A stretch of 64,000 nt of DNA from Candidatus Nomurabacteria bacterium (GTDB taxonomy: Bacteria; Patescibacteriota; Minisyncoccia; Phycocordibacterales; UBA9973), in contig JAPLXQ010000011.1 of NCBI GenBank assembly GCA_026395995.1, positions 4,210 to 68,209 of the forward strand, given 5' to 3'. A program made the translations under genes and the position numbers. How positions within the stretch are numbered: position 1 is the stretch's first letter; every line of letters begins with the position of its first letter. The notes below the pieces were generated by a model. That model ran no database searches, was not told where the DNA came from, and was given only the letters and a program-made list of their open reading frames with translations. Below are positions 19,140 to 46,304 of this stretch, piece after piece.

Positions 19140-19502
19140 ATGACAAATTCAGCAGTTACAACAGTAGTTTCGTTTAATTTTTTTGATTTTTTAAAATCAA
19201 TTTCTAGATGGTATAAAAACCGTATAGGCAATAAAAAAGGTTTTGGTTGTTGCCCTAATTGTGGTGATAGCTGGAATTGGAAAAGTAGTATCGGTGTTGA
19301 GTATGAAAAACACTATTTTTTTTTTTTTTTTTTTATTTCACCCTCAGTAAGTATTTGCAGCGAATGTTTAACTTCCGCAAAATTTGATTACCAAAGAATT
19401 GAAAAACATTTGGAGTCAGGTACTTGGGAAAAAGAAAACATTGCGAAAGCAATAACCGCCTTAAAAGAATTTGAAAAAAACAAAAAATTAACTAAAAACT
19501 AA
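19140..19502 (+). CDS. hypothetical Cys-rich small protein containing a T20 homopolymer tract
   Basis: CPNCG ... CSECL zinc-ribbon-like halves separated by the FFFFFF translation of a 20 nt poly-T run (19315-19334). Coding status is uncertain. Confidence 0.3.
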   Translation: MTNSAVTTVVSFNFFDFLKSISRWYKNRIGNKKGFGCCPNCGDSWNWKSSIGVEYEKHYFFFFFFISPSVSICSECLTSAKFDYQRIEKHLESGTWEKENIAKAITALKEFEKNKKLTKN

Positions 19503-42121: not shown

Positions 42122-42730
42122 ATGGATATAAAAGCACCAAACCCCTATGTAAAACATGGGCATCGTCAAATAAAAATTTGTGTCTCTGGAGCAGCAGAGA
42201 CTGGTCACTGTGGACCAAATGCATTACAAAAAGCCAAAGACTTAGGCTCTGAGATTGTACGTCAGGGAGGAGTCCTCGTCACTGGGGCCACTACTGGTTT
42301 TCCTTTGTGGTCATCGATGGGCGCAAAAGAAGTAGGAGGTATTTCTATTGGTCTTTCTCCTGCAGCGACTGAAAAAGAACATATTCAAGTATACAAGCTT
42401 CCAGTAGATTATATGGATTTGATTATCTATACAGGTTTTGGTTACCAAATGCGAGATATATTATTGACACGTAGTACTGATGCCGTAATCTTAGGTTGTG
42501 GACGTATAGGCACTATACATGAGTTTACCGTGGCTTTTGAAGATGATAAACCAATTGGAATACTAGAAGATCCGGGATGGGAAATGGGAGATGAGATAAA
42601 GATGATTATTGAAAAAGGTCATCGTCCAAATCCAAAAATAGTATTCGATACTGACCCTAAAAAACTCGTAGAAAAAATTATTGATCTAATATTTAAAGAC
42701 AAAGACGCCGCTGAAGAGAATAAGAGTTAA
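42122..42730 (+). CDS. TIGR00725/LOG-like Rossmann-fold protein
   Basis: 'KICVSGAAETGHCG...VLVTGATTG' resembles the LOG/DprA-like SLOG family. Confidence 0.5.
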   Translation: MDIKAPNPYVKHGHRQIKICVSGAAETGHCGPNALQKAKDLGSEIVRQGGVLVTGATTGFPLWSSMGAKEVGGISIGLSPAATEKEHIQVYKLPVDYMDLIIYTGFGYQMRDILLTRSTDAVILGCGRIGTIHEFTVAFEDDKPIGILEDPGWEMGDEIKMIIEKGHRPNPKIVFDTDPKKLVEKIIDLIFKDKDAAEENKS

Positions 42731-42764
42731 ACTAAAATACATAGGTGAGACCTATGTATTTTAG
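42729..42764. repeat. 36 bp hairpin repeat (actaaaatacataggtgagacctatgtattttagtt), left flank of DGR cassette
   Basis: Near-identical copy at 45495-45533; also serves as a terminator hairpin. Confidence 0.9.
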
Positions 42765-42891
42765 TTTATAATTTAAGTTAAAAACTTGACTTTTATAGTG
42801 TATTGTGCTACACTTGTAGTTGGGAATATGTTGTCTGCCTAGCCCAAAGGGACACGAAAAGTACATTGTAATATATCAATAAATTTGAGTC

Positions 42892-43674
42892 ATGAAAGAC
42901 GAAAAAGAAAATCCGGTTTCTAAACCGACAGCGGGGATGCTCGCACAGTTAGGCTTCATTGTAGGCCAGCAAACGATTAAAGTATTATGTGAAGATGATA
43001 AAACTCTCTCGCATAGTGACGTTCAAATGATGATTTCTGACCCTGAAAACAGCAAGCAATTGCGCGAGTTATCAGAGCAGAATGCTATCAAAATCTTTGG
43101 CATTGTTTCCGATTCTTGGAAACGTGAAAAAGAAAAAAATACAAAATTTTGGAAAGAGTGTTTTGGTATTGATATACCTTGGGAGAAATTAATTATCTCA
43201 AACACAAATCCTGAATTTAAATTTGCTGAATTTATTCCTGAAAGTATCACTGCTCAAAAAGCTTTTGATATTTACGAGAAGAGATTTGGCAAGGACAAGG
43301 TATACAACTACTACGCTGAAAAAGGTATTGATAAAAATATCAAAATACAGCAGGAACGTCCAAAAGGTGATTATGTTATTTGTCATTTAGGTGGCGAAGA
43401 ACCTGATGCGAAACATCTCAATAAAAGCTACGATATATTTTCTACTGATGGAATCAAATATATGATTCCAAAAGAAGGAATAATTGCAGCACTGCGTTAT
43501 CGTTTTGAAACCGGCAAAATGTATGATGAAAAAGGATTAACATTTTTTCACGCGCTGGATGCCGATGACAAGGTGATGTGCATGAGCGGGAACGACAGTG
43601 GCAGGTTCTACATCAGCTGGGACGGCACGGGCTTCCAGAGTGCTGAGTTTGGTCCTCGTCAGGTCAGTTTCTAA
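42892..43674 (+). CDS. DGR target protein (variable C-terminus; likely CLec-fold ligand-binding domain)
   Basis: The C-terminal 35 codons are the VR: they match the downstream TR except at TR adenines. Confidence 0.75.
   Translation: MKDEKENPVSKPTAGMLAQLGFIVGQQTIKVLCEDDKTLSHSDVQMMISDPENSKQLRELSEQNAIKIFGIVSDSWKREKEKNTKFWKECFGIDIPWEKLIISNTNPEFKFAEFIPESITAQKAFDIYEKRFGKDKVYNYYAEKGIDKNIKIQQERPKGDYVICHLGGEEPDAKHLNKSYDIFSTDGIKYMIPKEGIIAALRYRFETGKMYDEKGLTFFHALDADDKVMCMSGNDSGRFYISWDGTGFQSAEFGPRQVSF
43558..43662 (+). repeat. DGR variable repeat (VR)
   Basis: 105 bp aligned to the TR at 43959-44063 with about 22 mismatches, all at positions where the TR has A. Confidence 0.85.
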
Positions 43675-43958
43675 AACTTTTCTTTTTTATTTTTTAACCC
43701 TGTATTTAATTCCCGTACTTCATTATGAAGGACGGGAATTTTTTTATATAATAATATTGGCTGTGAAAATGGTCTCGATTTAAATTGAGATAACATTTTG
43801 CCAAAAATTAGAAACTGCCTGTAAAAAATTGTTGATATAAGATCAAAAACAAAGCTTGCGACCGCAAGAGATAGAGATAGGAACCTGCCTATTATTTATT
43901 CAAAATATTTCTATGGAGATATTTGGTGATACGGAAGATTTTTTACAGTAAAGGACTG

Positions 43959-44063
43959 AATGCCGATGACAAGGTGATGAACATGAACAAGAACAACAAT
44001 GGCAAGTTCAACATCAACTGGAACAACACGGACAACCAGAATGCTAAGTTTGGTCCTCGTCAG
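43959..44063 (+). repeat. DGR template repeat (TR)
   Basis: Non-coding, A-rich copy of the target 3' end, followed by a hairpin aatccgc...gcggatt. Confidence 0.85.
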
Positions 44064-44089
44064 AAGTTTCTCGTGAATCCGCTTTCAAT

Positions 44090-44434
44090 TTATTGAGGCG
44101 GATTTTGTGTTATGGATTTCATCCAGCCGTTTGCCATCATGGAAATATTTTGTAAATTTTCTGCAAGGAGTAGATATTGTTTTTCAGGAATTATTTTGAG
44201 TTCGTATTCAGTACGGATTAAGTGTTTCAATACTTCAGTTTTCAATCTGACTTCTTTCAAATATTGTAATTTTTCTAATTTTGGACGAAAAGCTGATTCG
44301 ATACTCATCGCGAGCAAATGCAGGGAATATTCTTCTATTTTTTTATGAATACCGAGTTTATCGGATTTTGGTAATTTATTTCCTAAAATATAAATAGTTT
44401 TATATAATTTCTTTATATGACTAATGATAGGCAA
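44090..44434 (-). CDS. avd: Avd-like accessory variability determinant (four-helix-bundle / 23S rRNA IVS protein family)
   Basis: 114 aa; 'LPKSDKLGIHKKIEEYSLHL...LQNISMMANGWMKSI' parallels the IVS/Avd family consensus (FPKEE.YGLTSQLRRAA.SI...E.ML.GLIKSL). Confidence 0.7.
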   Translation of the reverse strand: MPIISHIKKLYKTIYILGNKLPKSDKLGIHKKIEEYSLHLLAMSIESAFRPKLEKLQYLKEVRLKTEVLKHLIRTEYELKIIPEKQYLLLAENLQNISMMANGWMKSITQNPPQ

Positions 44435-45513
44435 ATCAATATTTTCTCTGAAGTTGTTGCGGGGGGGGGCTACTCATAGTGACTTATTTTACCACATAAT
44501 TTCACCAGAAAATCTGCTTTTAGCATGGCGAGAATTTAAAAGAGGAAAAGCAAAGAAGATAGACATACAAGAATTTGATTTCTATTTAGAAGAAAATATT
44601 TTTAAACTTCATAATGAATTAAAAAATAAGACATATAAACCGAGTCCATATATCCCATTTTATGTTTGTGATCCAAAGCGTCGGCATATACATAAAGCTT
44701 GTGTACGAGATAGAGTAGTACATCAGGCATTGTTTAGAATTATCTCACCAATTTTTGAAAAATCTTTCATCTATGATTCTTTTTCTTGCCGGAAATACAA
44801 AGGAACGCACGCGGGAGTAGAAAGATTAGAGAACTTTTTGCGACAATCAAGTAAAAATTATTCACAAATAACTTATGCTTTGAAATGTGATATTTCTAAA
44901 TTCTTCGATTCTATTGATCACTGTATTTTAAAAAATTTATTAAGAAAGAAAATTACAGATAATGATGTATTTTGGCTTTTAGAAATTATCATAGATGGTT
45001 TTGAAAAGAAAAGTAAAATATACGCCATGGCTGATATTTCAAACTCACCACTTCTAGCGATAGCAAAGAGTGGTGAGTTAAAAAAAAGGGCTTCCTCTCG
45101 GTAATGTAACAAGTCAATTTTTTGGAAATATTTATTTGCACCAATTAGACTTTTTTATTAAAAATAACTTGAGAGTAAAATACTATATTAGATACGCTGA
45201 TGATTTTGTTATTTTATCAACTGATTATGAGATTCTTTTAAATTGTATTGATAGGATACGAAATTTCTTAAATAAAGAATTATTACTTATATTACATCCA
45301 AAGAAAATATCTATTCGTAAAAATATACAAGGAATTGATTTCTTGGGTTATGTTTTATTACCACATTATAAAGTTTTAAGGACAAATACAAAAAGAAGAA
45401 TTTTTAGAAAATTTAAAAAGAATCTTTCCAAAGAACAACAAGCATCTTATTTCGGAGTATTAAGTCATTGTAAAGGGTATAAAGTAAAACAACAACTAAA
45501 AATACATAGGTGA
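44424..45513 (+). CDS. DGR reverse transcriptase, interrupted by a frameshift in an A8 tract (45080-45087)
   Basis: RT motifs RDRVVHQAL, SFSCRKYKGTHAG, LKCDISKFFDSIDH, then (after the +1 frame change) KGLPLGNVTSQFFGNIYL (the DGR-specific LGxxxSQ) and YIRYADDFVIL (YADD). A G9 tract (44461-44469) lies 36 nt after the ATG. Confidence 0.85.
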
Positions 45514-45533
45514 GACCTATGTATTTTTAGTTG
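45495..45533. repeat. 38 bp hairpin repeat, right flank of DGR cassette
   Basis: Near-identical to 42729-42764. Confidence 0.9.
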
Positions 45534-45593
45534 ACAGTAGTAGCATTTTTATGCTACTTTAGAGGTAAATCATTATTTAAAAATATAAAATAC

Positions 45594-46304
45594 ATGGAAG
45601 AACAATTGTCAGAAATAGAGTTGGCTGCTGATAAACATGCATCTCTAACTATCAATCCTGAATTTTATTCAAAGATTGTTTTGCAACTAGCAAATGATAC
45701 GAAAAAAGCTGAAGAAACTGCAAAGAATATAAAACTCATTGCTCGGCATGTGATGTTACTTGATTCGTTTTATGAAACAAACAAGCTCGAGTACAAGGAT
45801 CTTGCTGAAAAAGCAAAAATAGAATTATTAAAAAATATCCCTAATAATTATAAAGGAGATTTTGAAAAGTTGTACAAAAAATTAAGTACTTTTTGGGTAT
45901 ATGAAAAGTCTTTGATGGAAAAGAAAAAGTTTTCTAAAGAAGAACGGGTAGAATATATACGTAAAAAAGCATCTGATGTATTTATGTATCTATTTATTGC
46001 GGAATTTTCTGTTCATATTCCAAAAAATATAATTGATGCTTTGTATGCCTTACAACAACTCAATGATATCTATGATGATATCATTGATACAAAAGAGGAT
46101 AGAGAGAATGGCTCACCAAATTTAATTTTCCTTTTTTCCTGGGATTATAAAGATATAAAGTCTTTGAGTGGAATGGAGAATATAGAAATGTATTCTCTAA
46201 TTGAAGGATTAACTTCAATTATTCGAAAAAATACAATGGTTGAATTTCCCTTTATTTTTGAAAAGGGGATGGAATACCAACAAAAAATCGTAAACATGTT
46301 ATAA
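45594..46304 (+). CDS. hypothetical protein (alpha-helical; DDxxD-like 'DDIIDTKED' motif)
   Basis: Start at MEEQLSEI; only weak resemblance to class I isoprenoid synthase Asp-rich motifs. Confidence 0.4.
   Translation: MEEQLSEIELAADKHASLTINPEFYSKIVLQLANDTKKAEETAKNIKLIARHVMLLDSFYETNKLEYKDLAEKAKIELLKNIPNNYKGDFEKLYKKLSTFWVYEKSLMEKKKFSKEERVEYIRKKASDVFMYLFIAEFSVHIPKNIIDALYALQQLNDIYDDIIDTKEDRENGSPNLIFLFSWDYKDIKSLSGMENIEMYSLIEGLTSIIRKNTMVEFPFIFEKGMEYQQKIVNML

Follow-up and report, generated by a model that had tools for sequence, protein, structure and literature searches.

We describe a diversity-generating retroelement (DGR) in a metagenome-assembled genome of Candidatus Nomurabacteria, a member of the Patescibacteria, or candidate phyla radiation (CPR). 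It lies in a stretch of 64,000 nucleotides (contig JAPLXQ010000011.1, positions 4,210 to 68,209), which was analysed as a whole and is called the window below. All coordinates are those of the window, and features are on its plus strand unless stated otherwise. The cassette is composed of a target gene (42892-43674) ending in a variable repeat (VR), a template repeat (TR, 43956-44065), an avd gene on the minus strand (44090-44434) and a reverse transcriptase (RT) gene in two parts (44424-45104 and 45082-45513). The avd and RT genes are arranged head-to-head and overlap. Since the surrounding genes are housekeeping genes (RNase J-like beta-CASP, SLOG/LOG-like, L20, L35 and IF-3), the cassette is chromosomal. 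The layout TR-(avd)-RT, termed B3, is found in 90% of CPR DGRs (Wu et al. 2018, PMC5758913), and the coordinates of TR, reverse-strand avd, RT and upstream target fit it. The element is a member of this published layout, which is itself already known and common in CPR bacteria.

Template and variable repeats

The last approximately 36 codons of the target gene form the VR (43555-43664, core 43555-43662). An A-rich repeat of this segment, the TR, lies downstream and is in frame with it; its core (43956-44063) has 108 nt, 41 of them adenines. The two cores align without gaps over 108 nt at an offset of 401, with 82% identity. Each of the 19 mismatches (16 A>G and 3 A>T) has an A in the TR, and none of the 67 non-adenine TR positions differs from the VR. 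For all mismatches to fall on TR adenines, the hypergeometric probability is 3.7e-10. Extension of the match by two bases (43663/44064 and 43664/44065) adds two mismatches, again at adenines, so that differences are confined to TR adenines in 19 of 19 cases, or in 21 of 21 in the extended match.

A preliminary description of this DNA, made by eye, had reported the downstream repeat at the right coordinates, and the computed match (43555-43662 versus 43956-44063) bears it out. Its example codons (AAC/AGC, AAG/GGG, AAT/AGT and AAC/TAC) are all correct. Its count of "about 22" mismatches has to be lowered to the numbers given above, but the claim that the downstream copy carries A at every one of them stands, and the tabulation by TR base that it had called for upholds the adenine bias. 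The identification of the locus as a DGR with the downstream copy as TR is likewise borne out, by the adenine-only differences together with the bRT-like RT and the bAvd match presented below.

The VR occupies the 3' end of the target gene, and the TR adenines fall on codon positions 1 and 2. Among TR codons there are nine AAC and three AAT; 25 of 36 codons are mutable, which makes about 10^23.7 protein variants possible. With a view to the IMH/IMH* elements that direct homing in DGRs, VR and TR were compared at their 3' ends: they have an invariant block, TTTGGTCCTCGTCAG, in common, followed by GTC in the VR versus A in the TR and then by AGTTTCT in both. AGTTTCT belongs to the VR/TR homology and encodes the conserved C-terminal Ser-Phe-stop. 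About 44 nt 3' of the VR there is a hairpin with a 16-bp stem and a T run (43708-43740), the probable terminator of the target gene, which could also be the post-VR hairpin known from some DGRs. Its counterparts, differing in sequence, are present at all homologous loci. No further VR or target paralogue was found in the window, and the repeat has no other copies there.

Target protein

The target is a protein of 260 amino acids (MCX6755609.1, 'hypothetical protein' at NCBI), with no signal peptide or membrane segment evident by eye. In the predicted model, an N-terminal four-helix domain is joined to a C-terminal C-type-lectin/FGE-like domain. The latter agrees with the ligand-binding protein that had been suggested earlier, with the assignment of this fold being moderate, not strong: a Foldseek comparison of the target with the PDB gave no significant match. 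Searches of Pfam, NCBIfam and the PDB with the target sequence gave no match, and none was found for the N-terminal four-helix domain. The target family comprises 34 proteins, in whose C-termini conserved scaffold residues alternate with hypervariable positions. Around approximately half of the target homologues, no RT lies within 4 kb.

Reverse transcriptase and Avd

The first part of the RT gene (44424-45104, 226 codons) encodes an N-terminal extension, fingers, motifs 1-2a and a variable loop of 24 amino acids. It corresponds to MCX6755611.1 (226 aa, 'reverse transcriptase domain-containing protein' at NCBI), whose stop codon is created by a frameshift. The second part (45082-45513, 143 codons, +1 frame) encodes GLPLGNVTSQ, YADD and the thumb; both the LGNVTSQ and YADD motifs are thus located downstream of the frameshift. 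The +1 shift takes place at a run of eight adenines (A8, 45080-45087). Three-frame translation and removal of one A from this run give a continuous RT of 362 amino acids.

The best PDB match of the RT is 8ub7 (E 2.1e-43), whose sequence we take to be that of Bordetella phage bRT. In tblastn the RT is 34% identical to BPP-1 brt (GenBank AY029185, E 6e-43), and RTs of other phages are also similar. The best group II intron RT in the PDB is far weaker (E 1.2e-17), and PDB chains deposited as 'retron-type reverse transcriptase' (5hhl, 5hhj) reach E ~1e-15 (5.6e-16). NCBIfam has no model for DGR RTs, and its best RT match, a group II model, is far under its cut-off. With its SQ motif and, by search scores, its greater similarity to bRT than to group II or retron enzymes, the RT is assigned to the DGR clade.

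The avd gene (114 codons from a TTG) is convergent with the TR RNA and overlaps the RT gene by 11 nt. Its product matches the Pfam family PF22296 (bAvd) over the full length with 48.2 bits versus a cut-off of 40, and is thus recognized as Avd; the NCBIfam model DivGenRetAVD also matches it over the full length, under its cut-off. The preliminary description had placed an Avd-like reading frame downstream of the TR, correctly as to family but overlooking that it lies on the minus strand. The DGR-specific motifs that it had listed, LGxxxSQ and YADD, are there as LGNVTSQ and YADD, and the closer relation to group II or retron RTs that it had named as a refuting outcome is contradicted by the search scores (2.1e-43 for bRT versus 1.2e-17 for group II). 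It had also called the DGR "complete". All parts are indeed present, but the RT reading frame is split at A8.

The RT gene is uninterrupted at all 11 homologous loci (see below), and a split RT occurs only in this genome. The repaired frame reads ...GELKKGLPLGN..., and KKGLPLGN also closes this loop in homologues, from which it follows that an insertion turned A7 into A8. The same A8 sequence is found in Logan contig SRR20698644_9559, produced by a second assembly pipeline, and at least six other homopolymers of eight or more bases in long reading frames of the window are all in frame. We consider the frameshift probably genuine. It is recent, because the rest of the RT gene is intact. Low-level rescue of the RT by transcriptional slippage on A8 is possible. 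Programmed ribosomal frameshifting at this site was also considered and is unlikely, as neither a stimulatory structure nor a known +1 motif was seen by eye, no fold having been computed there.

The 24-amino-acid loop, SKIYAMADISNSPLLAIAKSGELK, is situated between motif 2a and GLPLGN (within 45005-45087), and most homologues have no loop there. Its DNA forms an inverted repeat with 16-nt arms (45037-45052/45069-45084, 88% complementary) that ends at the A8 site. The loop with this internal hairpin (45037-45084) was considered as an inserted element, and this was rejected: a few homologues carry in-frame loops of their own at this position.

Poly-G tract in the avd/RT overlap

The first codons of the RT gene contain a run of nine guanines (G9, 44461-44469) encoding a conserved Gly-Gly-Gly, which on the other strand is a C9 run upstream of avd. 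No other G or C run of seven or more is present in the window, where GGG makes up 7.7% of glycine codons. Tracts of G7-G12 occur at 15 of 16 loci checked (G-tract loci: the window, L008, L009, L011-L027, L152 and L157; the handles L001 and onwards denote loci on other contigs), and the tract is interrupted in L155. Tract lengths differ among loci by non-multiples of three, and a conserved upstream ATG (MxNNRxLN frame; 44417 in the window) is in frame with the RT body at two of 13 loci. Of 119 gene calls for homologous RTs, about 55% start at or after the tract. Many loci have in-frame alternative starts just before the G run, and Bordetella bRT starts at the equivalent position. The pattern could reflect phase variation, alternative starts or homopolymer errors. 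The conserved tract may gate expression of the machinery.

Conserved structured RNA around the template repeat

The target terminator hairpin and the TR are separated by 280 nt, which include an RNA domain of about 190 nt (43759-43948) that is conserved in all cassette-bearing loci. Six nucleotides before the conserved GG opening this domain there is a -10-like box, TATAAT (43747-43752), the putative promoter of the DGR RNA. TATAAT or TATACT stands at the identical 6-nt spacing in the loci read by eye (L008, L011, L016, L019 and L029); a promoter scan gave no call for the proposed promoter.

The domain is composed of the helices P1 (43759-61/43800-02), P2 (43766-76/43787-99), P3 (43819-30/43937-48), P4 (43832-34/43844-46), P5 (43855-59/43864-68) and P6 (43903-11/43916-24), and contains the invariant sequence UAGAAACUGCC (43809-19). 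P3 is a long-range helix of 12 bp with nine covarying pairs, closing 7 nt before the TR; P5 is a hairpin found with seven different stem sequences, all of which pair. RNAalifold predicted 39 pairs, 27 of them with compensatory changes. A covariance model (R1), built from 12 loci, finds the domain in 16 loci of the target family and, with weaker scores, in three distant B3 DGRs (L157, L155 and L152). The target of L157 is remotely related to the family, and those of L155 and L152 are not detected by the target family profile. Over 17 loci, 97.4% of cells are paired and 33 of 39 pairs show double (compensatory) changes, figures that are somewhat inflated by fitting the alignment to the model and that were reached by none of 500 shuffles. 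With shifted partners, pairing falls to 36-52%. The first, model-free alignment gave the same helices. The RNA is on the TR strand, because the frequent G-U pairs would be C.A on the opposite strand.

Another pairing presumably links this domain with the far end of the TR. The last mutagenised adenine of the TR, 44064, is immediately followed by AGUUUCU (44065-44071), a sequence that 11 of 12 loci have preserved and that is the complement of the invariant AGAAACU (43810-43816), 2 nt upstream of the 5' strand of P3. Single-sequence folding of 12 loci gives this putative helix, P7, in 10 of them, with pair probabilities of at least 0.84 (five inner pairs) or 0.73 (both end pairs). No covariation of P7 was found in the distant loci L155, L152 and L011: L011 and L155 have a central A.C mismatch, and L152 lacks an end pair.

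At every locus the TR is followed by AAGUUUCU (with one substitution in L011), a variable GC-rich hairpin and then UUUUGUGUU or a close variant. In the window the hairpin with its UUUUGUGUU tail (44076-44111) would be the terminator of the DGR RNA. This structure is kept with differing stem sequences in 12 of 12 loci, is present in the minimum free energy fold, and is a candidate counterpart of the Avd-binding stem-loop of other DGRs. Taken together, box, domain, TR and hairpin suggest a free-standing, apparently autonomous transcript of about 350 nt, from ~43759 to ~44110.

A search of 4227 Rfam families gave no match at E<=1 within 43759-44111, with four weak matches (0.12-0.68) lying upstream, and none at E<=0.1 in L017, L157 and L155. 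This null result covers the RT-1 to RT-19 motifs of Weinberg et al., provided that they are included among the 4227 families. A survey of DGR RNA elements (bioRxiv 10.1101/2023.10.23.563531) covered the 40 nt before and the 100 nt after the TR, and the 5' domain would therefore have been missed there. In the DGR literature searched we found neither this domain nor the poly-G tract nor the strain-level deletion series described below, and the conserved structured RNA that holds the TR seems not to have been described before. Metagenome contigs were also scanned with the 14-mer TAGAAACTGCCTGT; all 80 matches listed are due to chance, none fitting the RNA model.

Homologous loci and loss of the machinery

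The same gene order and orientation, with an avd/RT overlap of 7-11 nt, is present at 11 other loci of Patescibacteria. An A-biased TR/VR pair of 108-112 nt occurs at these 11 loci and at L016, which has neither avd nor RT. The three more distant loci (L155, L152 and L157) have the same layout, again with A-biased TR and VR.

Six contigs from different samples (L001-L006) represent sister strains, about 95% identical to the window on both flanks. They keep the target (90% identical protein) and pass from ~43775-43783 straight to 45531, so that TR, avd and RT are gone, and so is the RNA domain apart from about its first 30-45 nt (junction at L001 6860-6900). The junction fits a deletion at TGACAGT, 7 nt of microhomology that the RNA domain and the right flank share. 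This fits better than a junction at the flanking hairpin (see below), an idea that was dropped.

Outside the VR, the target alleles of the window and L001 differ at 30 of 673 positions (4.5%). Within the VR they differ at 28 of 110, with 24 of these at TR adenines and four elsewhere, about the background rate. The concentration of the differences at TR adenines implies that the VR was rewritten independently in the two lineages, after which the sister lineage lost the machinery. Only two VR alleles are present in the protein collection, one per strain lineage. In the window, no difference separates VR from TR at the 67 non-adenine positions, where about three would be expected had homing ceased at the strain split; this is weak evidence (P about 0.05) of recent retrohoming.

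Remnants beside other target genes, together with the sister strains, form a nested loss series. L016 (4950-5200) keeps the RNA domain, the TR and the last avd codons, having lost avd and RT; L029 (4856-5060) keeps the whole RNA domain without a TR; L031 (4649-4816) and L026 (4821-4966) keep partial RNA domains. In L024 (4810-5150), which belongs to the same genome as L016, a full RNA 5' domain is located downstream of a target homologue and is followed by an AAC-rich TR-like segment unlike the adjacent VR, with no avd or RT nearby. Such an RNA could serve a different target, as an orphan TR or in trans.

Flanking hairpins and neighbouring sequences

Two near-identical perfect hairpins of 41 nt (29 nt identical) bracket the unit from target to RT. 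They are the only copies in the window, with none expected by chance. Copy 1 (42728-42768) has a 19-bp stem; copy 2 (45493-45533) encodes the RT C-terminus in its 5' arm and holds the RT stop codon in its loop. Copy 2 is identical at 39 of 39 positions to the single hairpin that the sister strains have upstream of the target. Duplication, gene conversion or an integration scar are possible origins of the pair. The bounds of the preliminary description, 42729 and 45533, correspond to this repeat; the two-frame RT, the sister-strain deletions and the larger RNA had not entered it. Mobility of the cassette by means of flanking direct repeats was considered and rejected, as eight homologous loci have none except a weak pair (39 nt, 72% identical) in L027. 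The hairpins are therefore specific to this lineage.

The SLOG/LOG-like gene is the upstream neighbour of the cassette, and its stop codon stands just before the hairpin at 42728. The downstream neighbour (45531-46304) encodes a protein of 236-257 amino acids without a Pfam match, and also adjoins the target in the sister strains that have no DGR machinery. The longest homopolymer of the window is T19 at 19316-19334, inside a stop-free stretch of 145 codons.

Discussion

The locus is very probably a genuine chromosomal B3 DGR of the order target - TR - (avd, reverse strand) - RT. Several observations nevertheless weigh against this reading. The RT is not encoded by an intact reading frame, and no intact allele of it was found among 5.8 billion proteins, the next relative being 62% identical. 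The deletion in the sister strains shows that the machinery is dispensable in this lineage. Finally, the first codon of avd is TTG (44434, minus strand), whereas, at the equivalent positions of 10 loci, most homologues have CTT or CTC, preceded by a conserved ATT/ATC-GAR. Because of these homologous codons the start of Avd is uncertain and may be non-canonical.

An ordinary partial gene duplication without any retroelement activity would explain why a direct repeat exists, and nothing further. It is refuted by the placement of all mismatches on the adenines of one copy (P ~4e-10), the same pattern recurs at 14 other loci, and a cognate RT and Avd are adjacent; we attach practically no weight to it. 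The present state of the element is a more difficult matter. It may be a decaying relic, in which the A8 frameshift is inactivating, no functional RT is made, the VR is frozen and erosion follows the path already taken by the sister strains. The frameshift splits the RT before its catalytic motifs, and two assemblies agree on it. The other long homopolymers in reading frames are in frame, so that the assembly is not generally error-prone at runs. Six contigs of ~95% identity lack 43776-45530, L016, L029, L031 and L026 carry nested deletions, and about half of the target homologues stand without an RT within 4 kb. On the other hand, apart from the extra A both RT halves are stop-free and keep their conserved motifs, and the identity of VR and TR at 67 of 67 non-adenine positions, against about three differences expected, means that any inactivation would be very recent. 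Decay is a serious contender, if somewhat short of an even chance.

The extra A might instead be an assembly error in the homopolymer, the real genome having A7 and an intact, active DGR. It is a single base in a homopolymer within an otherwise intact RT gene, and the two assemblies, the Nomurabacteria genome and Logan contig SRR20698644_9559, may share the same reads. But two pipelines arrived at the identical sequence, at least six other runs of eight or more in long reading frames of the window are in frame, and the protein collection contains no A7 allele; we therefore regard an error as unlikely. Slightly less likely still is a switchable or low expression of the RT, in which RNA polymerase slippage at A8 and the variable G7-G12 tract would turn hypermutation on in a fraction of cells. 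Such switching would accord with a poly-G tract conserved in 15 of 16 loci although GGG is rare (7.7%) and no other G or C run of at least seven occurs in 64 kb, with tract lengths varying by non-multiples of three, with an upstream ATG in frame at two of 13 loci, and with the ~55% of 119 RT gene calls that begin at or after the run. However, in-frame starts before the G run and the start of bRT at that place mean that the frame of the upstream ATG may not matter. L152 shows the same G9 state in 15 contigs of several samples, which speaks against fast switching, and the A8 frameshift is unique to this genome; no stimulatory structure after A8 was seen by eye, where no fold was computed.

Returning to a genuine B3 DGR, we propose a scheme that borrows its biochemical steps from BPP-1 and connects them with the anatomy, the adenine-only differences, the RT and Avd families, the target fold, the RNA secondary structure and the independent VR rewriting found here. 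An RNA of ~350 nt would start at a promoter of its own (~43759) and end at its own terminator (~44110), carrying a structured 5' domain of 190 nt, the TR of 108-110 nt and a 3' hairpin. RT and Avd would copy the TR to cDNA with misincorporation opposite adenines, and the cDNA would replace the last ~36 codons of the target gene. Up to 25 codons, predicted to lie on the ligand-binding face of the C-type-lectin-fold domain, could thus be rewritten. The element itself would be either freshly inactivated or reliant on rare transcriptional slippage. As a tentative extension, for which we would not claim even odds, B3 DGRs may use a circularly permuted, free-standing RNA: the 5' domain would be the equivalent of the Sp scaffold, the strand 43810-43830 would pair with both TR flanks, P7 would position the start of cDNA at A44064, and P3 would stop the RT.

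To our knowledge, DGRs are the only prokaryotic systems for targeted hypermutation of proteins. They are unusually frequent in CPR bacteria; we know of no CPR DGR that has been tested biochemically, and all mechanistic knowledge that we are aware of comes from one phage element, whose RNA scaffold is placed after the template. A scaffold that precedes the template and is supported by covariation offers a testable model for priming and stopping of reverse transcription in CPR DGRs, and the covariance model can be used for finding CPR DGR RNAs and orphan TRs. With the strain series, the fate of a hypervariable gene can be compared before and after the natural loss of its mutator, through the stages of cassette with broken RT, retained TR, retained scaffold, vestige, and target alone.

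Comparison with known systems

The BPP-1 DGR (mtd-avd-TR-brt) resembles the Nomurabacteria element in the adenine-specific differences between TR and VR, in the VR at the 3' end of a gene for a C-type-lectin-fold protein, in the Avd accessory protein and the related RT, and presumably in RNA duplexes that bracket the TR at both ends. BPP-1 is phage-borne, whereas the present element is chromosomal. Here avd lies on the opposite strand, downstream of the TR; the TR is apparently transcribed separately, with a -10 box and a terminator of its own; the target is not related to tail fibres and shows no evident signal peptide; and the RT is frameshifted. With respect to Treponema denticola TvpA and the FGE-type C-type-lectin fold, sequence identity of the target is only 7-9%; it matches neither FGE-sulfatase nor DUF1566 of Pfam, and a four-helix N-terminal domain precedes the fold.

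A structured non-coding RNA contiguous with the TR is shared with BPP-1 Sp, Rfam RT-10 and the RNA features of Handa et al. The large structured RNA is 5' of the TR in the Nomurabacteria element and, as Sp, 3' of it in BPP-1. In the ribonucleoprotein of the Bordetella phage one Sp strand pairs with the TR flanks: the priming nucleotide sits in the duplex at the 3' end of the TR, and polymerisation is halted by the one formed with the upstream flank (bioRxiv 10.1101/2023.10.23.563531). P3 (12 bp) before the TR, the putative P7 (7 bp) at its 3' flank and the stem-loop after it are reminiscent of the 'cPRT stop duplex' and the Avd-binding stem-loop of Handa et al. The strand pairing with both TR flanks comes from downstream (Sp) in BPP-1; in the Nomurabacteria RNA it would come from upstream (43810-43830), a permuted topology.

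The closest likeness in layout is to the CPR B3 DGRs, which agree in gene order and orientation, in their Patescibacteria host and in a small target of unknown function with an unclassified VR; there is no difference in layout. What is new with respect to known DGRs is thus the conserved 5' scaffold RNA, with the permuted topology that it implies, and the natural deletion series.

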